Shown here one piece after another: positions 14,613 to 28,863 of a stretch of DNA of 37,978 bases. Position 1 is the first letter of the stretch; every line of letters begins with the position of its first letter. The notes under the pieces were generated by a model. That model did no database searches and was not told where the DNA came from. It worked only from the letters and a program-made list of their open reading frames with translations. Source of the DNA: a virus. Lineage: Duplodnaviria > Caudoviricetes. Where the stretch lies: positions 1 through 37,978 of the IMG/VR virus record IMGVR_UViG_3300025018_000291; one strand, 5' to 3'. A program made the position numbers and the translations under genes.

Positions 14613-15689
14613 GTGCCTCGATCGGAGGTCCTTGACCGGGTGATCGAGACGATCGCCCGGGCCGGCGGCGCGATGCACACCTCCGACATCATCAAGGCGC
14701 TGCCGGACCTCTCCCCCCAGCAGATCTACGACTCGGTCGCCGGAACAGCCCGGGCGAAGCACCGTCCGAAGCTGCGGCGCGGCGACCACCGGGTCTACAG
14801 CCTCACGGAGCACGGCCGGAAGCGGGCCGCCGAGCTGGGGATCTTCGTGACCGCCAGCCGGGTCGGAGACCGCCGGAACGACGTGATCCGGGCCGCCGCG
14901 AACAGGCAGCGCCGGCGAGAGGCCGCGCGCTCTCGCCGGCGGCACTTCGAGAGGGTCTGGCGCGACGAGGGCAGGGTGGTCCAGCCGAGGGGCGTGCTCG
15001 AATGGCGCCGGCGGCATCTGCAGGTCCAGCTCGATCTGCCGGAGGAGTTCGTCGCCGAACTGGATGCCGAGCTTCGCCGGCGAGGACTGCAGCGTGGCCG
15101 CAGCCCCCTGATGCGGCTCGCCTGGAGGATCGCGCGCGACACCATCATGGGCTGGCCAACCCTCCGGCTGCCCGGCCCCGAGCCCGAGCCCGAGTACGAG
15201 CCTCCGGCGGTGGACCCTCCGCGCCGGCCCGAGCTGGAGCCCCCCGTGTTCCGCGACCTCATCGAAGACCGCCGGGCGTCGATCCGCGAGACGGAGATGC
15301 GCGCGGAGCGAGACCGCAGGGTGGAGGAGGCGTGCGCCGGCGCACTGCAGGCCCTGGCCGACGGCCCGGCCCCGGCCTGCAAGCTGATCAGCGCGATGGG
15401 GGTGGGGAAGACGACCGGGTTCGCCCGGCTGAAGGCAGCGGTGGAGATCGGGATCGTCGACCGGGTCGGGCGCGGGGTCTACGCGCTGCCCGACGCCGAT
15501 GCTGACGTCGCTGCGCCGCTGCGAGACCGGATCGTCCGGGCGCTTGCAGCAGACACGATGAGCATCGCCGAGGTGGCCCGCGCTCTTGGCGAGGATCGGA
15601 TCAGGGTGAAGGAGGCGGTCCACCGTCTCGTGCGCCAGGGTCGGGTGGAGCGAGTCCGCGCGGGCGCCTACAGGAGCAGACCGAGATGA
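14613..15689 (+). CDS. multi winged-helix DNA-binding protein (start uncertain)
   Basis: Three wHTH-like segments ending RVYSLT, VDRVGRGVYAL, VERVRAGAYR. Confidence 0.6.
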   Translation: MPRSEVLDRVIETIARAGGAMHTSDIIKALPDLSPQQIYDSVAGTARAKHRPKLRRGDHRVYSLTEHGRKRAAELGIFVTASRVGDRRNDVIRAAANRQRRREAARSRRRHFERVWRDEGRVVQPRGVLEWRRRHLQVQLDLPEEFVAELDAELRRRGLQRGRSPLMRLAWRIARDTIMGWPTLRLPGPEPEPEYEPPAVDPPRRPELEPPVFRDLIEDRRASIRETEMRAERDRRVEEACAGALQALADGPAPACKLISAMGVGKTTGFARLKAAVEIGIVDRVGRGVYALPDADADVAAPLRDRIVRALAADTMSIAEVARALGEDRIRVKEAVHRLVRQGRVERVRAGAYRSRPR

Positions 15690-16557
15690 TCGAGAAGACC
15701 AAGGCCCGGCCCTTCCTGAAGTGGGCCGGCGGCAAGCGCCGGATGGCAGAGCGCATCCTCCAGATCGCGCCGCCGGAGGTGCCGATCTACATCGAGCCCT
15801 TCATCGGTGGCGGGGCGATCTTCTTTGCCCTGGCCGCCGCCGGCCGGCTGACCGGCGAGGTGATCCTGGCCGACCGCACGACGCGCTCGCGGAGGCGTGG
15901 CAGATGGTCCGCGACGCGCCGCACGCGGTGATCCGGCTGGCCGAGCGGTGGAGCTACGACGAGGAGACCTACTACCACGTCCTCGACAAGCTCGACCCCG
16001 AGGGGCCGGTGGAACGCGCGGCCCGGCTGCTCTGGCTCAACCGGACGTGCTTCAACGGCCTCTACCGCCTCAACTCGAGCGGGAAGTTCAACGTCGCCTT
16101 CGGGCGGTACAAGAATCCCCGGACGGTCGACGCCGAGAACATCCTGCGCTGCGCCCGCGTGCTGCAGGACTGCCGGATCATCGCCGGCGACTTCGAGGAG
16201 GTGGTCGAGGAGCATGTTGGCTCGGGCGCCTTCGTCTACCTCGACCCGCCCTACGTCCCGCGCAGCGAGACGTCGAGCTTCACGTGCTACGACGGCACGC
16301 GCTTCCTCGAGCCGGACCAGCGCCGGGTCGGCGCGCTCGTCCAGCGCCTCGGCGCTCGGCGCGACGTGACCGCGGTGGCGCACAACTCCGACGTCCCGCT
16401 GACCCGCGAGATCTGGTTCGGGCTCGACGGGGTGGCGCTCGAGACGGTGGAGGCGCGCCGCAACATCAGCCGCAACGGCCAGGGGCGAGGCCCGGTGGCC
16501 GAGCTGATCATGTCCGTCCGTCCGAGGCCGCGCGCGACAGAGCGTAAGTCCGCGTAA
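15686..16557 (+). pseudogene. dam: Dam family DNA adenine methyltransferase with a 1-nt deletion near 15878
   Basis: PFLKWAGGK, YIEPFIGGGA, ILAD in frame 1; LNRTCFNGLYR.N..GKFNV.FG and YLDPPY in the shifted frame. Confidence 0.8.
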
Positions 16558-16601
16558 TCCCGCTAGAATGTCGATTGTGGGCATCTTTCTCGAATAGGGG
16601 G

Positions 16602-16630
16602 TGGATACCGGACGCGGTTTCCGGCATATT
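16602..16630 (+). promoter_or_regulatory. repeated promoter/operator copy 8
   Basis: TGGATA-CCGGACGCGGTTTCCGG-CATATT. Confidence 0.7.
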
Positions 16631-16701
16631 GGTAGACACAAAGGGGGACGGACCCCCTACCAACCCCGGGCGAGGCGCCCGGACAGACCAAGGAGCCAGC
16701 C

Positions 16702-18581: not shown

Positions 18582-19193
18582 ATGCGGCAAGACGCCAGCG
18601 ACCGAGTCCAGACCTTCACGCGCGCCGAGGTGGCCCGACTGCTGAAGGTGACCGCCGACCACGTTCGGGGCGCCCGGGACCACGTCATCATCTCGATCGC
18701 CCTGGCGACAGGGCTGCGCGAGTTCGAGATCGCAGCCCTCAACTTCGGCGACCTCTTCAAGCCCGGGCAGCGCCTTCCTCGCAAGCGGGTCCGGCTCCGG
18801 GTCTTCAAGACCTCGAACACGCGCGCCGAGCAGCAGGTCATCACGCTCAACGACCGCGTCCGCGAGAAGCTGGTCGCGCACCGGGAGAGGATGGAGTCGG
18901 AGGGGTTCGAGACCGGGCCGGACGACCCGGTCTTCTGCTCCAACCGCCGCAAGCGGATCTCGGAGCGAGCCATCCGGCACAACTTCGGGATCTGGCAGCA
19001 GCGGGCGGAGATCGATCGGCCGCTGACCTTTCACAACCTCCGGCACACCGCCTGCACCAACCTCTGGCGCCGGCACCGCGACATCCTGCTGGTCCAGATG
19101 TTCGCCCGGCACGCCGACATCAGGTCGACCCAGCGCTACACCCACCCCACCGCCGAGGACCTCGAGGCTGGGGTCAGCGACCTGCCATGCTGA
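18582..19193 (+). CDS. tyrosine recombinase, catalytic domain only
   Basis: TGLREFE (R), HNLRH (HxxR), ARHADI (H), TQRY (Y); 203 aa. Confidence 0.88.
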   Translation: MRQDASDRVQTFTRAEVARLLKVTADHVRGARDHVIISIALATGLREFEIAALNFGDLFKPGQRLPRKRVRLRVFKTSNTRAEQQVITLNDRVREKLVAHRERMESEGFETGPDDPVFCSNRRKRISERAIRHNFGIWQQRAEIDRPLTFHNLRHTACTNLWRRHRDILLVQMFARHADIRSTQRYTHPTAEDLEAGVSDLPC

Positions 19194-19829: not shown

Positions 19830-21326
19830 ATGAGCCACGCTTCGCCTCAGATCATCGTCCGGCGTGACGAGCAGGAGTTCAACGACTGGATCGCGACCGA
19901 GGCGGGCTTCCTCGAGGCGTTCGGCCGGTACGCCGACGACGAGCTGCAGCTCGAGGCGTTCCAGCGCGAGTTCCTCGACTTCACCAAGGGCGACGGCCGG
20001 CGGCCCCGGTTCCGCCACGCCAACAAGAGCCGGCGGATCGGCTTCAGCTTCATGTGCTCGCTCGAGGGGCTGGCCCGATGCCACCTCCGCGAGCGCCACA
20101 AGGCGGTCTACGTCTCCTACAACCTCGCCGACGCCAAGGAGATCATCCACGAGGCGCGCGCGGTCCACGAGGATCTGCCGCTGGCCTACCAGAAGCGGCT
20201 CGCGGTGGACACGAAGACCGAGCTGGCGTTCGAGCCGAGGACCGGCGGGCGCCGGCACCAGAGCCGGATGATCTCGCTGCCGGCGAAGGCCCCGCGCGGC
20301 AAGGACGGCGACTGCTACCTCGACGAGTTCGCGCACTGCCCGAACGACGAGGAGATCTACCGCGGCGCGACGGCGCTGATCGCGCGGTCCGGCGGGCAGC
20401 TCACGATCTGCAGCACGCCGCTCGGCAAGCGGGGGAAGTTCTGGGAGATCTCGTCGCGAGAGGGCGGGCGTCATCGGAAGTTCAGCCGGTTCAGCTACCC
20501 CTGGTGGCTCTGCGAGCAGTTCTGCCACGACATCCTGCGGGCGAGCCTCGAGGTCAACCGGATGCCGACCCACGAGCGTGTGGCCCGGTTCGGCACGGAG
20601 GCGATCCAAGACCAGCTCGAGGCCCTCGGGGTCGAGGCGTTCCAGCAGGAGTTCGAGTGCGTCTTCATCGACGAGAGCACCGCCTTCCTGCCCTACGACC
20701 TGATCCTCTCCTGCATGCTCGACGAGCCCGAGCCCGGCGAGCCGCTGACTCGGGAGCACATCCTCGTGGCCGAGGAGCCCGAGATGGTGCCCAAGCCGAT
20801 CGGCCGGCTGGTCGCCGGGGTCGACATCGGCCGGAAGCGCGACCTCACCTCGGTCACGGTCATGGAGAGCATCGGCGGGCACTACTTCACACGCCTGCAG
20901 GTTGAGATGGCTCGCACGGCCTTCCGCAAGCAGCGCGAGTACCTCCGCCGGCTGCTGAAAACGCTGCCGCTCGCTCGCCTCTCCATCGACAGCACGGGCA
21001 TGGGCCTCCAACTCTCCGAGGAACTGGTGGAGGAGTTCCCGTTGATCGTTCGGCCCGAGACCTTCACCCTGGCGAGCAAGGAGCGCTGGGCCATCCGCCT
21101 CAAGACGCTCATGCAGGAGCGCCGAGTGCTCCTGCCGCGCCGCCGCCGGCTGGCCGCGCAGATCCACGCCGTGCGCAAGCAGGTCACGGCATCCGGCAAT
21201 GTGCGGTACGATGCCGGTAGAACCGAGGGTGGCCACGCCGATATGTTCTGGTCGGTGGCCCTCGCCTGCCAGGAGGAGCCCGCGCCGCCGAGCCGAGGGC
21301 GCGTGCGGGTCAGGGTGTTCGGATGA
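19830..21326 (+). CDS. terL: terminase large subunit (Mu gp28-like)
   Basis: KSRRIGFS Walker A, YLDEFAH Walker B, CSTP, GVDIGRKRD, HADMFWSVALA. Confidence 0.92.
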   Translation: MSHASPQIIVRRDEQEFNDWIATEAGFLEAFGRYADDELQLEAFQREFLDFTKGDGRRPRFRHANKSRRIGFSFMCSLEGLARCHLRERHKAVYVSYNLADAKEIIHEARAVHEDLPLAYQKRLAVDTKTELAFEPRTGGRRHQSRMISLPAKAPRGKDGDCYLDEFAHCPNDEEIYRGATALIARSGGQLTICSTPLGKRGKFWEISSREGGRHRKFSRFSYPWWLCEQFCHDILRASLEVNRMPTHERVARFGTEAIQDQLEALGVEAFQQEFECVFIDESTAFLPYDLILSCMLDEPEPGEPLTREHILVAEEPEMVPKPIGRLVAGVDIGRKRDLTSVTVMESIGGHYFTRLQVEMARTAFRKQREYLRRLLKTLPLARLSIDSTGMGLQLSEELVEEFPLIVRPETFTLASKERWAIRLKTLMQERRVLLPRRRRLAAQIHAVRKQVTASGNVRYDAGRTEGGHADMFWSVALACQEEPAPPSRGRVRVRVFG

Positions 21327-21526
21327 AGGCGACCGTCGAAATCTTCATGGTCAGCAAGCGCACGAAGCAGGCCCGGAAGTCCGAGCGGACCTTCGAGGTC
21401 GAGGGTCGCACGCAGGACGACCTGCGCGCCGCCGCCCGGGCTCGGCTGGAGAGGGGCGGGGCCGCCATCCGAAGCATCTCGCATGGCGCGCGCGGGCTGA
21501 TCGTCTACGTGGAGGTCGGCCGTTGA
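21323..21526 (+). CDS. small basic hypothetical protein
   Basis: ATGA and TTGA overlaps with terL and portal. Confidence 0.65.
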   Translation: MKATVEIFMVSKRTKQARKSERTFEVEGRTQDDLRAAARARLERGGAAIRSISHGARGLIVYVEVGR

Positions 21527-23334
21527 GCGCCGCGGAGGTCATCAACGAGGCAGACGGCACGAAGACCGCCGTCGTCAAGGTCCGGTCGATCGGTCTGAGC
21601 AAGCCGAAGACCGTCGGCGGTGGCGAGAGCCAGGGGCCGTTCGCCAACGTCGGTTCCATCCCGCCGCCCTACGACATGGCCGTCCTCTTCCGCTGGGTCG
21701 AGGACAGCCACACGCTCCGCCCGAACATCGACGCCTACGCGAACAACATCGACGGCTTCGGGCACCGGCTCGAGCCGGCGATCGACCTGCGGGCCGAGGG
21801 CGCGAAGGACGAAGTCGCCGAGGCGGTCTTCGCCAACCTGCTGCTGACCTCCGGCATCGAGCCCGCCTTCCCCGAGGGCGATGCCTTGGATGCGGAGGTC
21901 GAGGCGATCCGGCGCAAGGCCCGGATCGAGAAGGCGCGCGCCGAGGCGTTCTTCGCCAACTGCGCCTACGAGCCCGGGCAGAGCTTCGCCGGGCTGCGTC
22001 GCGAGACTCGCCGGCATCTCGAGGGGACCGGCAACGCCTTCTGGGAGGTGCTGCGCAACCGGCGCGGCGAGCCCTCGCGCTTCAAGCTGGTCCCGCCCCA
22101 CCTCTGCCAGCTCATGCCGCTCGACGACGACTTCACGATGGTCGACGATTGGGAGCGGACCAGCCAGATCCACGTCACGAAGACCTCGCTGCCGAAGCGC
22201 TGCCGGCGCGTCGTCTACATCGAGGATGGGACGACCGAGGAGGTCTACCTCAAGGAGTTCGGCGACCCGCGGGTAATGTCGCCGAGGACCGGGCGCTACT
22301 ACTTCAGCCCCGAGGATCTGGCCCGCGATGAGGAGGGCGTCCAGCCCGCCAACGAGTACGTCCATTTCAAGATCGAGGCCCCCGACACGCCCTACGGCGT
22401 CCCGCGGTGGATCGGCGCCCTGCCCGACGTGATGGGGCTCTACAAGGCCGCGAAGGTCAACCTGCTCTTCTTCGACAACAAGAGCATCCCCCCGATGGCA
22501 CTGCTCGTCTCGGGCGGCACCCTGGCCGACGGCGGCGAGGAGCGGATCAAGAAGCACATCGAAGAGAACATCAAGGGGGTCGACAACTTCCACAAGATTC
22601 TCGTGATCGAGGCCGAGTCGGACGGCAAGAGCGGCACCGCGATGCGGGTCGAACTGAAGCCGCTGACCGACGCGATCCAGAAGGACGCCCTCTTCCTCAA
22701 CTACGACGAGCGCGGCACCGACAAGGCCGGCGGGCAGTTCCGGCTTCCACGACTGATGCGAGGCGACACCCGAGACTTCAACCGGGCGACCGCCGACGCG
22801 GCGATCCGGCTGAGCGAGGATCAGGTCTTCGCGCCCGAGCGCGACGACTTCGACTTCTACATCAACCGCCGGGTCATGCCGTCGATCGGCTGCTCCTTCT
22901 ACATCTTCCGGTCGCTGACCCCGGTGACCCGCGACCCCGAGCGGCTCTCGAAGGTGGTCAAGGAGCAGGTCGTGGCCGGGACGATCACCCCGCGCGATGG
23001 CCGGGCGATCATTGAGGACGCATTCAACCGCCGGCTGCCGCCGATCAACCGCCCCTGGATGGACCAGCCGATCGCGCTCACCCTGGCCGGCATTCAGAAC
23101 GACATGGCGCCGGGCGCCGGCGACTCAGACGAGGTGGACGTCGATCAGGAGGCGCGCCGGATGCTCGAGGTGAAGTCCCGCCTGGACCGGGCGAAGGCCC
23201 AGCTCGCCGACCGCCGGATGGCGCTCGCGCGCCAGCAGCAGCTCGGCGGCGACCTCGACGAGATCACCCTGCAGGTCCCCGCCGGCGAGTTCCGATCGTG
23301 GTTCAAGCCGACGGGGGAGGGGGCGGGCGAGTGA
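21523..23334 (+). CDS. portal protein (PBSX XkdE-like)
   Basis: IPPPYD, GTGNAFWEVLRN, YGVPRW, FFDNKSIP, DFNRATAD; TTG start with GGAGGT RBS. Confidence 0.9.
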   Translation: MSAAEVINEADGTKTAVVKVRSIGLSKPKTVGGGESQGPFANVGSIPPPYDMAVLFRWVEDSHTLRPNIDAYANNIDGFGHRLEPAIDLRAEGAKDEVAEAVFANLLLTSGIEPAFPEGDALDAEVEAIRRKARIEKARAEAFFANCAYEPGQSFAGLRRETRRHLEGTGNAFWEVLRNRRGEPSRFKLVPPHLCQLMPLDDDFTMVDDWERTSQIHVTKTSLPKRCRRVVYIEDGTTEEVYLKEFGDPRVMSPRTGRYYFSPEDLARDEEGVQPANEYVHFKIEAPDTPYGVPRWIGALPDVMGLYKAAKVNLLFFDNKSIPPMALLVSGGTLADGGEERIKKHIEENIKGVDNFHKILVIEAESDGKSGTAMRVELKPLTDAIQKDALFLNYDERGTDKAGGQFRLPRLMRGDTRDFNRATADAAIRLSEDQVFAPERDDFDFYINRRVMPSIGCSFYIFRSLTPVTRDPERLSKVVKEQVVAGTITPRDGRAIIEDAFNRRLPPINRPWMDQPIALTLAGIQNDMAPGAGDSDEVDVDQEARRMLEVKSRLDRAKAQLADRRMALARQQQLGGDLDEITLQVPAGEFRSWFKPTGEGAGE

Positions 23335-23570
23335 AGCTGGTCGGCCACGACTGCATCGAGTGCCTCGAGCCGGGGGAGGGCATGCGATCTCCCCGGCCGG
23401 CGGCGATGCCGCTGGTCGCCTACTTCCTTCGCTGCCCGAAGTGCGGCTGGAGGAACATGGCCAGGAAGGCCAAGGAGGAGGGCGGCAAGGCGACCATCAA
23501 CGCCGGGTGCGTTCGGTGCGGGAGCGACATCAGCGTCCGCGGCGTCGAGATCCCAGGGGCTGCGTCGTGA
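23331..23570 (+). CDS. small zinc-ribbon protein
   Basis: CPKCG and CVRCG pairs; GTGA overlaps on both sides. Confidence 0.6.
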   Translation: MKLVGHDCIECLEPGEGMRSPRPAAMPLVAYFLRCPKCGWRNMARKAKEEGGKATINAGCVRCGSDISVRGVEIPGAAS

Positions 23571-24628
23571 TCCGCTTCGACGTGGTCAGCGCCGGGGCCG
23601 ACGCAGCCGGCGAGATCCTGGCCGGGTGCTGTGGCGTCCACGCAGTCGCCAAGGCGATCAACCTCGGCTCGAAGGCAGGCTTCGATCGCGCCGTGGCCAG
23701 CTTCGCCAGCGCCCTGCGCCGGCGCGCCGCCGAGCCGGAGCGCGACGCGGTGGCCGAGGCGCTCAAGGTGCTCGACGTGGACTGGCAGGCGACGACGGCT
23801 GCCCAGCGGAGCGCCCTGGTCAACGACGCGCTCGTGGCAGCCGGGCGCGCGACGGCCGTGATCCCCGTCCGACACGAGGAGGTCGTCGTTCCTCGGGCTC
23901 GAGATGTGGTCGAAGCTGGGCGCGCCGACGTGCGCCGGGCCGGCCTGACCATCGGGGCCGACTTCAACAGCGTCGACGAGCGGATCGTCGAGCACCTCCG
24001 CGACAGCCACGTCCTCTACGTGACCGACGAGTACGGGCGCCGGATCGACGCCTTCGGCGCCTCCGCGCGCGGGATCGTCGCCGACGGGGTCGAGCTGGGC
24101 CTCGGCCGGGCCGACATCGCTGGCCGGCTGCAGGCTGCGGCGACCAAGGATCTGGCGGCCCGCTCAGGCTTCTATTGGGAGGTGGTCGCTGCGGCCTTCA
24201 CGACCCGCGGCAGGTCGTTCGCCCAGGTCTCCGGCTACGCCGAGGCCGGCGTCGAGAAGTACCGCATCGAGGCGGTGCTCGACGAGGTGACGACCAACTT
24301 CTGCCGGTCGATCCACGGCACCGAGTTCTCCGTCGGAGCGGGGCTCCAGGCGTTCGCCGACGCCGAGCGACTGACCGCGCCGGAGGAGATCAAGGACGCG
24401 GCGCCCTGGGTGCGCGAGTCGAAGAACGAAGACGGCACGACCGAGATGTGGGTGAAGCGCGGCGCGGAGCGCATCTCGGTCGGGACGGTGGTAGACTCCG
24501 CCGTCGGGCGCGCAGATGAGATCGGCAAGTTCAAGGGGCTGCGATCAGCCCCCGACCTTGGCTCGCTCGGGATCGGACTGCCGCCATACCACGGGCTGTG
24601 CAGGACGACGACCGTTCCCGTGTTGTAG
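23567..24628 (+). CDS. minor head protein (MuF / SPP1 gp7 family)
   Basis: AVLDEVTTNFCRSIHG ... PPYHGLCRT; follows portal. Confidence 0.85.
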   Translation: MIRFDVVSAGADAAGEILAGCCGVHAVAKAINLGSKAGFDRAVASFASALRRRAAEPERDAVAEALKVLDVDWQATTAAQRSALVNDALVAAGRATAVIPVRHEEVVVPRARDVVEAGRADVRRAGLTIGADFNSVDERIVEHLRDSHVLYVTDEYGRRIDAFGASARGIVADGVELGLGRADIAGRLQAAATKDLAARSGFYWEVVAAAFTTRGRSFAQVSGYAEAGVEKYRIEAVLDEVTTNFCRSIHGTEFSVGAGLQAFADAERLTAPEEIKDAAPWVRESKNEDGTTEMWVKRGAERISVGTVVDSAVGRADEIGKFKGLRSAPDLGSLGIGLPPYHGLCRTTTVPVL

Positions 24629-24705: not shown

Positions 24706-25023
24706 ATGAGCTTCAAGCACGTGATCGACGGCATCGTCGACGCCGCCAAGCAGATGGACGAGGCCGCCAAGACGGACCTCGCGACGCAGCTCGCCGACGC
24801 GGCGAAGGCGCTGGTGCCCGAGAAGGCCGAGCCCGAGAAGGGCGATCCGGCCGACGCCGGCGCCAAGGGTGAGGAGGCCGAGGAGAAGGCCACCGGCGGT
24901 GCGGGCGGTGGCGCGGCCGGCGCCGACGGCGAGAAGCCCGAGGACGAGGAGGGCATGGACGGCGAGAAGTCGAAGACCTCCAAGGCGGCGACCATGCCCT
25001 GGCCGCTCGACATCAACGACTGA
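24706..25023 (+). CDS. acidic scaffold-like protein with C-terminal WPLDIN motif
   Basis: GAGGAGG RBS; E/K/G/A-rich; motif shared with 26899-27831. Confidence 0.7.
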   Translation: MSFKHVIDGIVDAAKQMDEAAKTDLATQLADAAKALVPEKAEPEKGDPADAGAKGEEAEEKATGGAGGGAAGADGEKPEDEEGMDGEKSKTSKAATMPWPLDIND

Positions 25024-26906
25024 TGTTCGGGCCGGGGCTCATCGAAGACCTCGCCCTCGAGGCGGCTCACGAGGTGCAGATCGCCAAGGTGGCGATTTGG
25101 GGTTCCCCGGCGGGCAAGGCTCGTCTGGCGAAGCGCCTCGTTGCGATGATCCCCGAGGGCGTCACCAAGTACTGCGAGCCGTTCTTCGGGGCCGGCTCGG
25201 TCTTCTGGACCTTCTGCGAGGGCCGCGACGTCACGCCCGAGGCGTGGCTCAACGACTACGCGACCGACATCGCCGAGGCGCTCAAGATCCTCAAGGGCAT
25301 GCGCCCGAGCGACTTCGCCCGTCTCAAGGCGATGGACTGGACCGGCCGCAAGACGACCTTCCACAAGGTCTACGACAGCCGGCCGACGACGGCCCTGGCC
25401 AAGCTGCACCGCTTCCTCTACGTCGCGCGCTTCAGCTACGGCTCGATGCGGAAGCGGTCCTTCGACCCTGGATCGGAGGGGAAGACCGGGAAGATGGCCG
25501 AGCGCGCCGAGCGCTTCGCTCCCCGGCTGGCCAACGCCCATCTCTACCAGGGTGACTACGAGCGGGTGATGGTCGACGCGGACAGCCGCGAGACCTTCCA
25601 TTTCCTCGACCCGCCCTACGCCGGCTACAACGCCGCGGTCCACGAGAGCGAGTTCGACGAGGAGCGCTTCTTCGCGCGCCTCAAGGCGCTCAAGGGGAAG
25701 TTCGTGCTGACCTACGGCATCCGGGGCAAGCTCCCCGCGATGGTGAAGGGACACGAGGGCTTCAGCGTCCGCACGATCACCCCGCCCCGCAGCATCCGAA
25801 CGATGCGAGGCGTGGCCGGGCCGAAGGTGCTGCCGACCCTGGTGGTGACCAACTTCGACGCGACCTTCAAGGCCGCCGCCGCGGTCGACGAGATCTTCCG
25901 CTCGGAGGGGTACGAGGTCGGCGTCTGGACCGAGAAGACCGACGCGGATCTCGACAAGGTGGAGGCCGGGTCCGTCTGCGCGATCATCCCGATCCGCGGC
26001 GCGCTCAAGGGGCAGTTCCCCAGGTCCAACGAGCCCGACGTCGCGCCCGGCGATCGCATGCCTCCGCACGTCACCGTGCTGTTCCAGAGCGATCCGAAGG
26101 CCGCCGAGGTCCCGAAGATCAAGGCCGCCATCGAGCGGGCCGCCGCCAATGTCCAGCAGTTCGAGGTGCAGATCGGCGGGCTGGGGCACTTCCACGGCGA
26201 CGAGCACAGCGTCGCCTACGCCAAGGTCGCCGGCGACGGCGTCCAGGCCCTGCGCCGGGCGATCGAGCTGGAGCTGCAGTCGGAGGGCATCGAGGCCGAG
26301 ACCCACAAGGACGGCTTCACCCCGCACGCGACGATCCAGTACATCGAGGCCGGGTCCGAGTGGGATGGGGCGGTGCCGTCTGGCACCTCGGTGGTCAAGA
26401 CGATCGAGGTCTGGACCTCCGAGGGCCGGACCGTCTACAGCCTCTCGGCGCCGGCGGCGAAGCGCGACCGGGTCGAGATCAAGATCGACACCATCGTCAA
26501 CGGCGCCGACGGGGTCGTGCTACCCTGTGCCAAGGCCGCGGACGAGCAGTACGTTCTCGGCATCGTGCTCAAGCCGGAGGAGACCGACACCCAGGGCGAC
26601 ATCTACGACGAGGACGCGATCCGAAAGGCCGCCTTCGGCTACATGGCCAGCTTCTCGAACGGGAGCGGGCGGCTCGGCCTCCAGCACAAGATGCGCCTCC
26701 ACGAGCAGGTCGTCCTCGTCGAGAGCTACCTCGCCCCGGTGGACTTCACCGTCGGCGGGCGCGAGATCAAGAAGGGGACGTGGCTGATGGGCTGGCTCGT
26801 CAAGAGCGAGAAGCTCTGGCAGGAGATCAAGGCTGGGAAGTGGACCGGCTTCTCCATCGGCGGCACGGCCCGGAAGACCCCGGTGAAGGAGGCCCCCGAT
26901 GCCTGA
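25023..26906 (+). CDS. fusion: DNA adenine methyltransferase + 2H phosphoesterase + XkdF-like prohead serine protease
   Basis: GSPAGK, EPFFGAG, LND, DPPY(196); HVTV(349), HATI(435); DTQGD, GLQH(555), VESYLAP, KGTW, GFSIGG(S611). Confidence 0.85.
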   Translation: MFGPGLIEDLALEAAHEVQIAKVAIWGSPAGKARLAKRLVAMIPEGVTKYCEPFFGAGSVFWTFCEGRDVTPEAWLNDYATDIAEALKILKGMRPSDFARLKAMDWTGRKTTFHKVYDSRPTTALAKLHRFLYVARFSYGSMRKRSFDPGSEGKTGKMAERAERFAPRLANAHLYQGDYERVMVDADSRETFHFLDPPYAGYNAAVHESEFDEERFFARLKALKGKFVLTYGIRGKLPAMVKGHEGFSVRTITPPRSIRTMRGVAGPKVLPTLVVTNFDATFKAAAAVDEIFRSEGYEVGVWTEKTDADLDKVEAGSVCAIIPIRGALKGQFPRSNEPDVAPGDRMPPHVTVLFQSDPKAAEVPKIKAAIERAAANVQQFEVQIGGLGHFHGDEHSVAYAKVAGDGVQALRRAIELELQSEGIEAETHKDGFTPHATIQYIEAGSEWDGAVPSGTSVVKTIEVWTSEGRTVYSLSAPAAKRDRVEIKIDTIVNGADGVVLPCAKAADEQYVLGIVLKPEETDTQGDIYDEDAIRKAAFGYMASFSNGSGRLGLQHKMRLHEQVVLVESYLAPVDFTVGGREIKKGTWLMGWLVKSEKLWQEIKAGKWTGFSIGGTARKTPVKEAPDA

Positions 26907-27831
26907 CCCGCAGCACCGCCTGGACGAGTTCGAAATCGACGAGGTCAGCGCGGTCGACCGCGCCGCCAACGGAGAGAAGTTCGTGATCACCAAGCGCGAC
27001 GAGCAGCAGGCCGACGGCGAGAAGGCCGCCGAGGACACCAAGGACGGCGAGCAGGCCCAGGCCGAAGGCGAGAAGGCCAGCGCCGAGCCCCCGAAGGACG
27101 GCGAGCAGGCCCAGGCCGAGGGCGAGAAGGCCGAGCCTCCGGCCGGTGGCGGTGGGGCCGATGAGCCCGCCTCGCCCGAAGACGAGGAGCAGGGCGACGC
27201 CGGCGAGGATGGGGCCGAGGCCGACAAGGCTGCGCCGGCGCACATGGCGCTGCTCAACGAGCAGGCCGCCGCGCTCAAGGCCACCGTCGACAAGGTGCTC
27301 GCGTCCATCGACGGTGAGGACGTCGACTTCAAGGCCGCGATGGACCACCTCGACTCCGTCTGGACGCTGATCTACAGCATGCGCGAGTCGGCGGGGGTGG
27401 TCCGGCTGATGAAGTCGGCGGGCGGCTCCGACCCGTTCGCGCCCATCGAGCGCTCGATCCTGACCAAGCAGGCCGAGCTGATCGCCGAGGCGCGCAAGGC
27501 CCCCGATGACGAGCCCGGCATGGGCGGCGATCCCGGTGCGCCCGAGGGCGAGGGCGGCGAAGAGGCGCCCGCGGGCACCGAGGGTGACCGCTGGGCGATG
27601 GTGCTCGAGAAGCTCGGCGCGCTCGACGAGAAGCTCGACCGGCTGCTCGAGACCCAGGCCAAGGACGCGGTGGGCAAAGCCCTCGGCGAGCTGCAGGCCC
27701 GCGTGACGAAGATGGAGGCGGTGCCGGTCGCGCCGTCGACCGGGGGCTCCGGTGGGGGCGCCCGCGCGAACGCTCGCAAGGGGGTCGACGTGGACTGGCC
27801 CTCGGATCTGAACGCGCCCGAGAAGGGCTGA
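26899..27831 (+). CDS. capsid scaffold protein with N-terminal EVSAVDRAAN protease strand
   Basis: Acidic/coiled-coil; 39-bp repeat 27040-27078/27094-27132; ends WPSDLN; precedes capsid gene. Confidence 0.75.
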   Translation: MPDPQHRLDEFEIDEVSAVDRAANGEKFVITKRDEQQADGEKAAEDTKDGEQAQAEGEKASAEPPKDGEQAQAEGEKAEPPAGGGGADEPASPEDEEQGDAGEDGAEADKAAPAHMALLNEQAAALKATVDKVLASIDGEDVDFKAAMDHLDSVWTLIYSMRESAGVVRLMKSAGGSDPFAPIERSILTKQAELIAEARKAPDDEPGMGGDPGAPEGEGGEEAPAGTEGDRWAMVLEKLGALDEKLDRLLETQAKDAVGKALGELQARVTKMEAVPVAPSTGGSGGGARANARKGVDVDWPSDLNAPEKG

Positions 27832-27918: not shown

Positions 27919-28863
27919 ATGTCGAATCGGCAGCTCATCCAGAAGGCCGACCTCGCCCTCGACGAGATCCGCGACGGTGGCGGGCTGCTCGAGCCGGCGA
28001 AGGCCAAGCAGTTCATCAAGGAGATGATCCAGTCGAGTGACCTGATGAAGAAGGTCACCGTCACCCCGATGGACGCGCCCAAGCAGCGCATCCCCCGCAT
28101 CGGGCTGAACAGCCGGATCATGCGACGCGGCACCTCGGCGACCGCCCTGAACAACGAGGCCGATCGGTCCAACCCGGACTTCGGCTTCGTGGAGTTGGAC
28201 GCGCAGCTCCTGAAGGGCGAGATCCGCATCCCCGACGAGATCGTCGAGGACAACATCCAGCGCGGCACCTTCCCCGCCCTGGTGACGGCGATGGCCCGCG
28301 AGCGGGTGTCGGCGGATCTCGAGGAGCTGGTCATCAACGGCGACGTCGACTCGGCCGACGACTACCTCGCCACGCTGGACGGCATCCTCAAGCAGGCGAC
28401 GCTCCACGTGGTCGACTTCGGCGGCGACCGGGTGAACCGGCAGAACCTCACCCTGATGCACCGGGCGATCCCCAAGCCCTACCGCCGGCTCAAGAGCAAG
28501 ATGGAGTTCCTCACCTCGGACAACGCCGAGGAGGACTTCCGCCTGCTGTTCGAGGACCGCGAGACCGACGCCGCCGACAAGCAGCAGTCGGACGCGACCT
28601 CGATCAAGCACCACGGCACCCTCATCACCCCGATCGGCCTCTGGCCCGAGGACCTGGGGGTGGGCGAGGACGAGACCAAGGTGCTGCTGACCGTGCCGAA
28701 GAACATCGTGGTGGGCTTCTGGCGGAACATCCGCTTCGAGGTCGACCGCAACGTCCGGGCCGGCTACATCAGCATCGTGATCACCTGCCGGATGGACGTG
28801 AAGTTCTCCGACCCCAACGCGGTGGTCGTGGGCGACAACGTCCTCAACCAGGGCTTCGCCTGA
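27919..28863 (+). CDS. major capsid protein (XkdG-like, HK97 fold)
   Basis: MSNRQLIQKA, GGLLEP..A..F, EDNIQ, DLEELVINGD, DGILKQA. Confidence 0.9.
   Translation: MSNRQLIQKADLALDEIRDGGGLLEPAKAKQFIKEMIQSSDLMKKVTVTPMDAPKQRIPRIGLNSRIMRRGTSATALNNEADRSNPDFGFVELDAQLLKGEIRIPDEIVEDNIQRGTFPALVTAMARERVSADLEELVINGDVDSADDYLATLDGILKQATLHVVDFGGDRVNRQNLTLMHRAIPKPYRRLKSKMEFLTSDNAEEDFRLLFEDRETDAADKQQSDATSIKHHGTLITPIGLWPEDLGVGEDETKVLLTVPKNIVVGFWRNIRFEVDRNVRAGYISIVITCRMDVKFSDPNAVVVGDNVLNQGFA

Follow-up and report, generated by a model that had tools for sequence, protein, structure and literature searches.

A DNA methyltransferase, a 2H phosphoesterase and a prohead-protease half on one chain: a candidate head-cargo polyprotein in a phage head operon

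Why should a phage build a DNA methyltransferase (MTase) and a 2H phosphoesterase into the same polypeptide as its prohead protease? The question is raised by a 627-aa reading frame in a linear virus record (the window, that is, the entire stretch of 37,978 bases analysed here; 43% complete, 71% GC, contractile-tail genes present) whose host, to judge only from its relatives, is probably a myxobacterium. The best explanation, held at slightly better than even odds (roughly 0.55), is that the protein is head cargo, tethered to the scaffold and processed by itself. This explanation starts from direct observations (the fusion, its position in the head operon, the intact catalytic motifs, the protein family and the statistics of a short motif) and continues as a proposed series of steps. 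One chain joins the MTase and a LigT-like 2H domain to the capsid-maturation protease; the first strand of the scaffold protein is predicted to complete that protease and to tether the chain within the procapsid; the polyprotein likely cuts itself after [ILV]-x-K sites, releasing its enzymes; the freed enzymes would be packaged and then probably ejected along with the DNA. The MTase would methylate incoming DNA against restriction and the 2H domain would act on a nucleotide signal or on cyclic-phosphate RNA ends.

One reading frame in the head operon

The genes of the region run in the order terminase, portal, MuF-like protein, a 105-aa acidic ORF, the polyprotein gene, scaffold and major capsid protein. 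After the terminase these are:

21199..23334, + strand: portal protein, with a conserved [ILV]-x-K near its start (the true start is probably further in)
23360..24628, + strand: MuF-like minor head protein, with a conserved N-terminal V-x-K
24706..25023, + strand: 105-aa acidic ORF, its stop overlapping the polyprotein start; conserved in the sister phage L001
25023..26906, + strand: 627-aa polyprotein (leader, D12/Dam-type MTase, 2H phosphoesterase, XkdF protease half; from Pfam and PHROG domains)
26899..27831, + strand: putative scaffold protein, 310 aa (from its position and N-terminal matches to PHROG 13975/3017)
27919..28863, + strand: HK97-fold major capsid protein, with a conserved [IL]-x-K9

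An earlier note on this DNA had located the polyprotein between the MuF and the scaffold/capsid genes, which is borne out; the 105-aa ORF went unmentioned there. The polyprotein start overlaps the upstream stop and the polyprotein stop overlaps the scaffold start by 8 bases, an arrangement that suggests coupled translation. The C-terminus of the 105-aa acidic protein (WPLDIND) resembles that of the scaffold (WPSDLN); possibly the two share a capsid-binding tail, or the ORF encodes a second scaffold-like protein. Directly upstream of the terminase gene lies that of an integrase-like protein (PHROG 216; 18582-19193, + strand), which suggests a temperate phage.

The polyprotein itself is made up as follows:

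25023..25088, + strand: leader of 22 aa, closing with I-A-K22 (predicted cleavage site); L001 has a similar one
25089..25862, + strand: D12-class DNA methyltransferase, aa 23-280, motifs intact (PF02086, PHROG 13242)
25863..25958, + strand: acidic linker ending in L-D-K312, a predicted cleavage site ahead of the 2H domain
25959..26444, + strand: LigT-like 2H phosphoesterase, about aa 313-474, with H349-V-T351 and H435-A-T437
26445..26534, + strand: linker with A-A-K480 and C-A-K504, predicted cleavage sites that are imperfect in the window copy
26535..26903, + strand: XkdF (S78_2) prohead-protease half, with H555 and S611 (PF14550)

The frame is uninterrupted, as had been claimed: it holds zero internal stops, its GC3 is 0.82-1.00 across all 40-codon blocks, and the domain-by-domain profile comparison that the earlier note had proposed places all three domains over their Pfam cut-offs (PF02086, D12 MTase, aa 31-208, E 6e-15, 56 bits against a cut-off of 22; PF13563, 2H, aa 343-440, E 2e-16; PF14550, XkdF, aa 504-618, E 7e-30, 104 bits against a cut-off of 24). 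All motifs lie where they had been placed (GSPAGK at aa 27, EPFFGAG at 52, DPPY at 196, HVT at 349, HAT at 435, H555 and S611), and H555 and S611 are invariant across 26 aligned XkdF relatives. By its profile, its His/Ser residues and its gene position the XkdF half is a member of the prohead-protease family, with proteolysis itself a candidate activity; a search of PDB sequences with the XkdF profile returned no relative at E<=10. Internal translation restarts were considered and rejected: the sole Shine-Dalgarno-like site before an in-frame start is at aa 18, with none before the 2H domain or the protease.

An assembly join as the origin of the fusion is ruled out. In run X2, which comes from a study other than that of run X1, a single contig covers 24500-27065, and its sole indel within the ORF is an in-frame loss of 3 bases. 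No stop or frameshift, which the earlier note had named as contrary evidence, separates the domains on this contig, an assembled one as distinct from raw reads.

An exchangeable slot ahead of the protease

The protease, used as query against 1.84 billion representatives, matches 5020 protein clusters, and in 126 of the best 150 XkdF cluster representatives at least 100 residues precede it. Cargo found in a Pfam scan of 131 proteins of at least 200 aa (130 representatives plus P0123, the three known MTase fusions being left out) comprised D12 MTase (24), InPase (27), DNA ligase (5), 2H (4) and Tad3-like domains (4, of which 3 over the cut-off), as well as single MBL, Hint and DUF matches. The survey of other enzymes fused to XkdF that the earlier note had called for thus finds many interchangeable enzymes in one place: the slot is an exchangeable cargo bay. 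Should the proposed mechanism be true, thousands of phages, those behind the 5020 clusters, would share one readable rule for loading enzymes into the head; and because many of the 131 scanned proteins, long as they are, show no Pfam match ahead of the protease, the slot would also be a guide to unknown counter-defence proteins. The family extends to giant chains of 736-1851 aa with an ATP-dependent DNA ligase, some of which add MTase, MBL or Hint domains (L002-L006; P0167, P0173, P0183, P0213 and P0248). In P0136, P0215, P0234 and P0253 the Tad3-like matches (PF25185, anti-Thoeris) sit between InPase and the XkdF protease.

Nearly all of the best 120 of 137 homologues of the polyprotein are D12 MTase-XkdF fusions, with a 2H domain in P0002 only. 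Counting the query (121 proteins), 76 carry one MTase, 26 carry two and 19 carry three, many of them different, and DPPY is kept in all 185 MTase domains of these close family proteins. Among the relatives from named genomes, the 32 best loci (L013-L044) belong for the most part to Myxococcota prophages, and these share the gene order of the window. The family MTase has a dN/dS of 0.03-0.26 in 15 of 15 pairs drawn from 11 Myxococcota prophage loci and, by this measure, is under purifying selection.

The MTase of the window matches PHROG 13242 (E 3e-117), has 7m6b as its best PDB sequence match, carries its SAM-binding motif and DPPY in alpha order, and is 51-56% identical to the best MTase-XkdF relatives. 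Dam proper, which is GATC-specific, is rejected: TIGR00571 gives 62.4 bits against a cut-off of 114.85, and the region of the target-recognition hairpin is, in alignment, unlike that of E. coli Dam. GATC is not avoided (147 copies against 108 in shuffles); six 6-bp palindromes are missing altogether from 14.6 kb of coding sequence, where shuffles give means of 4-9, and their absence suggests restriction pressure. Over the window as a whole AGGCCT, CAGCTG, GAGCTC, GGATCC, GGGCCC, TCCGGA and ACCGGT are absent, and CTAG and GTAC are depleted.

A tree of the protease (44 rows; bootstrap not fully settled) groups the window protein with P0124 (from L001), P0122 and P0123 at support 98/90; P0122 and P0123 are MTase-free 2H-XkdF proteins, and a scan of viral contigs with P0122 found nothing. 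The window copy would seem to belong to a 2H-XkdF lineage that additionally carries the MTase module of the Myxococcota MTase-XkdF family, with close kin losing the module. The 90% cluster of the polyprotein has 4 members, and all 3 of the others show an MTase that carries lesions or is deleted, in each case in a single assembly that may contain errors. P0002, the protein matching the X2 copy (626 aa, 98% identical), has P29L, M261R and G266W, all at invariant or near-invariant positions, two of these lesions lying 15 bases apart; P0270 (624 aa, 92% identical, likewise three-domain) has lost the three residues G201-N203 right after DPPYA, including the invariant G201 and Y202; P0271 is missing aa 48-303 in frame, which may be an assembly error. 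The catalytic residues of 2H and protease are intact in 4 of 4 members. In L001, a similar leader leads straight into 2H: its protein P0124 has no MTase, the 2H domain has lost half its length and its frame, and the protease, which is all that L001 retains, begins at a start codon of its own. Modules appear, on these comparisons, to come and go at the leader boundary. Of the two-way payload proposed in the earlier note, then, the presence of both enzyme domains stands; its stability was overstated.

Such losses are what one would see if the MTase of this lineage were a recently gained passenger on its way out, the cargo being close to neutral and the protease alone mattering, and the placement of the window protein among MTase-free proteins fits the same picture. 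The window copy does add little beyond the family, since its MTase is unstable among close kin. This reading is nonetheless unlikely: purifying selection acts on the family MTase, the catalytic residues of the other two domains have survived throughout the cluster, the lesions come from single assemblies, and an independently assembled protein (L120) combines the 2H domain with an MTase and XkdF in another sequence of domains. The window also has a stand-alone Dam-like MTase gene (about 15690-16557, + strand), with a frameshift near 15877 that is shared by run X1. This shift is absent from X2 and X3, and X2 instead has the lesions in the head-fused MTase, a pattern seen in two strains only. 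Run X11 gave no match over 15500-16700, a result that is silent on expression.

Proposed punctuation by [ILV]-x-K and predicted completion of the protease

If the chain is to release its enzymes it must be cut, and a candidate mark for cutting is conspicuous. Of 147 representatives that allow the comparison (3 others lie too near the start), 140 have [ILV]-x-K within 15 residues ahead of the protease, compared with 27 for [ILV]-x-R and a background of 0.29, in counts whose family rows are related and not independent. Motif and protease are spaced anywhere between 2 and 14 residues apart, and the residue that follows the motif is A, S, G or T in 105 of the 140. In the close family 177 of 180 MTase domains likewise have the motif ahead of them, 5 further ones being too close to the start to count; among diverse representatives it stands before 18 of 22 MTases (2 truncated ones dropped) but before only 10 of 24 InPases (3 dropped). 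Portal, MuF, scaffold and capsid proteins all keep the motif close to their N-termini. The proportion of lysines in motif context is 0.39 in capsid, 0.38 in scaffold, 0.32 in MuF and 0.29 in the polyprotein family; in the proteins compared with these it is 0.07 in sheath, 0.07 in tube, 0.16 in terminase, 0.18 in portal, 0.18 in adaptor and 0.30 in neck proteins, and terminase likewise has a conserved V-x-K near its start. The window polyprotein has IAK22, LDK312, AAK480 and CAK504; in relatives the counterparts of the last two, which are imperfect sites, read V-A-K, V-E-K, V-R-K, I-S-K or I-A-K. The pattern suggests that [ILV]-x-K ahead of the protease is a self-cleavage mark. HK97-type proteases are able to cut after lysine. 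T4 gp21 cleaves at the analogous I/LxE (text of PMC12991175), a specificity that makes a lysine counterpart plausible.

The protease domain of the chain is a half, and the other half is predicted to come from the next gene:

26899..26994, + strand: N-terminal 32 residues of the scaffold (EVS-VDRAAN strand, invariant K32), predicted to complete the protease near S611

The first residues of the scaffold are highly conserved, and a model of their complex with the protease scores 0.81, while the best of 3 controls scores 0.00; the mark of 0.81 is attained by 116 of 157 solved pairs and 2 of 215 mismatched pairs, a calibration that is roughly applicable here. Separate runs agree on at least 91% of contacts with partner pLDDT of at least 70, and V16/S17 of the scaffold lie against S611. 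Since the modelled partners together make up a single fold, the pair may score well through its resemblance to prohead proteases of solved structure; the model supports a completed fold, or that likeness, as distinct from measured binding. In four relatives (P0090, P0105, P0118 and P0125) both protease halves are in one chain, and in P0125 the protease-strand junction gives a weak match to PF04586 (E 0.066). A scaffold strand in this position would give a tether and an activation switch at once, and the predicted contact offers a route into the procapsid.

It is tempting to extend the scheme to XkdF phages in general, with the split protease as a loading device that is active only in the procapsid, [ILV]-x-K punctuation freeing whatever enzymes are strung ahead of it, and the 2H domain removing a nucleotide alarm that the protease itself triggers; in so complete a form the proposal is tentative and rather doubtful. 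Delivery faces difficulties. Most often a prohead protease degrades the proteins that it cleaves, and the cargo may be lost in this way; and a folded 29-kDa MTase has to pass the tail.

The 2H domain, the place of action and known relatives

A model of the 2H domain built from five sequences (pLDDT 84.5; a single-sequence fold, pLDDT 41, was not used) finds its closest structural matches in 1iuh (Z 15.2, rmsd 3.0, 153 aligned), 5h7e (Z 15.0) and 1vdx (Z 14.6), which are of LigT/ThpR type; viral 2',5'-phosphodiesterases follow at Z 12-12.5 and Acb1 (7t26) at Z 9.4 (rmsd 3.5, 125 aligned). TIGR02258 is matched weakly, below its cut-off, and PF23474 (Acb1) does not match the 174-aa domain at E<=1. 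By its two HxT motifs and modelled fold the domain is LigT-like and not of the Acb1 family, and the link to Acb1 suggested in the earlier note finds no support. The substrate could then be RNA ends, with the domain serving as a 2',3'-cyclic phosphodiesterase or RNase and not as a destroyer of immune cyclic nucleotides. This is a real possibility, if somewhat short of an even chance: the top structural matches and the TIGR02258 hit point that way, and an RNase role is one option offered in the text of Iyer 2017 (PMC5512222), but a common fold does not fix a substrate, the viral 2',5'-phosphodiesterases are not far down the same list, some relatives of the domain match Acb1 weakly (P0247, L105 and L125, each below cut-off; 27% of one Atlas cluster), and the subset of window ORFs scanned includes no RNA ligase.

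Where the enzymes act is a separate matter. The 25 nearest 2H relatives, ORFs taken from 32 metagenome loci after removal of near-duplicates and of the record of the window itself, include 12 that are head-fused (6 to portal, 3 to a Mu-type protease, 3 to XkdF), in keeping with the group of 2H domains fused to head proteins in Iyer 2017; a word-index search found no stand-alone relatives of 92-296 aa among 57 candidates, which is weak evidence. With interchangeable enzymes in the slot and a predicted scaffold contact, these fusions make a head-associated cargo protein, as the earlier note had it, the best reading. The closest GenBank phage relative of the window 2H domain is carried by a 2039-aa 'hypothetical protein' with InPase, DUF7178 and DUF5661 (L095:709-6828; Virus Rctr197k gene 173).

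The enzymes might instead work late in the infected cell and never be delivered, the MTase marking progeny DNA before packaging, 2H quenching protease-triggered signals, and both then being degraded or discarded, with fusion to the protease setting time and place. In favour of such a scheme, the late cytoplasm offers plenty of replicated DNA and SAM, both of which are scarce inside a filled head, and Tad3-like domains too occur in the same slot (4 of 131). It also draws support from the activation of CBASS late in infection by prohead proteases (text of PMC12991175). This timing makes any anti-CBASS action of 2H more likely during assembly than on entry, and the earlier proposal that CBASS is countered before any phage transcription doubtful. 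Late expression, however, requires no fusion; related 2H domains also ride on portals (6 of 25), which stay in the virion; the lineage has its separate Dam-like gene for cytoplasmic methylation; and 2H is not of the Acb1 family. Purely late action is on balance unlikely. Scaffold-tethered cargo, for its part, has a precedent for the injection of anti-restriction head proteins in the Dar proteins of P1 (text of PMC12810830).

Much of the layout is known already. Protease-anchored cargo is in print (Iyer 2017), the general arrangement is a common one and goes back to a prediction of 2017, and two-domain forms are found in PHROGs 13242, 1530 and 14859. The text of Iyer 2017 (PMC5512222) places assemblin-like peptidases at the C-termini of polyvalent proteins, which the window chain resembles in its at least two unrelated enzyme domains, its head-gene context and its C-terminal assemblin-like peptidase; packaging and injection are a prediction of that paper as well, which calls the assemblin-like forms limited in distribution. 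Iyer 2022 (PMC9503650) mentions, in its text, fusions to a capsid-processing peptidase. XkdF, D12 MTase stacks, a cleavage motif and scaffold complementation are not named in the text of either paper, though Fig. 4A and the supplement of Iyer 2017 may list such architectures. The literature searched, as far as its text was accessible, does not describe the motif, the scaffold strand or the MTase stacks, which is no proof of novelty since most subscription papers lay outside its scope; the available text of a myxophage preprint (10.64898/2026.09.14.751636) has no occurrence of 'protease'.

The nearest of the known forms differ from the window in instructive ways. PHROG 13242, PHROG 1530 and the Myxococcota MTase-XkdF proteins have the same MTase family, C-terminal protease and MuF-scaffold slot, but the Myxococcota proteins lack 2H and many have two or three different MTases. 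PHROG 14859 and the proteins of two isolated phages, Arthrobacter phages Laroye (gp18) and Ottawa (gp87), both annotated 'RNA ligase', have 2H followed by XkdF downstream of the portal, with [LI]-T-K ahead of the protease; the Laroye and Ottawa proteins lack the MTase, are about 25% identical and come from phages of actinobacterial hosts. Acb1 (T4 gp57B; FBB1, PDB 7T26/7T27; text of PMC9117128) has the 2H fold and two HxT motifs, but is stand-alone and compact, with a C-terminal lid and aromatic residues that stack on the bases. P1 Dar/DarB (texts of PMC12810830 and PMC5512222) are head-packaged, co-ejected with DNA and anti-restrictive, and DarB holds an adenine methylase; DarB is, however, a methylase-helicase of about 2000 aa that is loaded through DarA/Hdf, whereas delivery in the window is a prediction and the D12 MTase is anchored on the protease. 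Cultured forms of the family are at hand in Corallococcus and Myxococcus prophages (MTase form) and in Arthrobacter phage Laroye (2H form).

A further peculiarity of the Myxococcota prophages concerns their capsid genes. In four of them (Citreicoccus, Corallococcus and two Myxococcus; L022:8881-8910, L025:10608-10640, L027:10606-10640 and L029:10591-10625) the capsid gene changes frame at one shared place, at CTC-TTA-C with its rare TTA, and two sheath genes are split at a similar CTT-TTA-C (L025 about 16605, L029 about 16597). The shared capsid frame change is possibly a conserved programmed -1 frameshift, a TTA-linked control or an old shared lesion.
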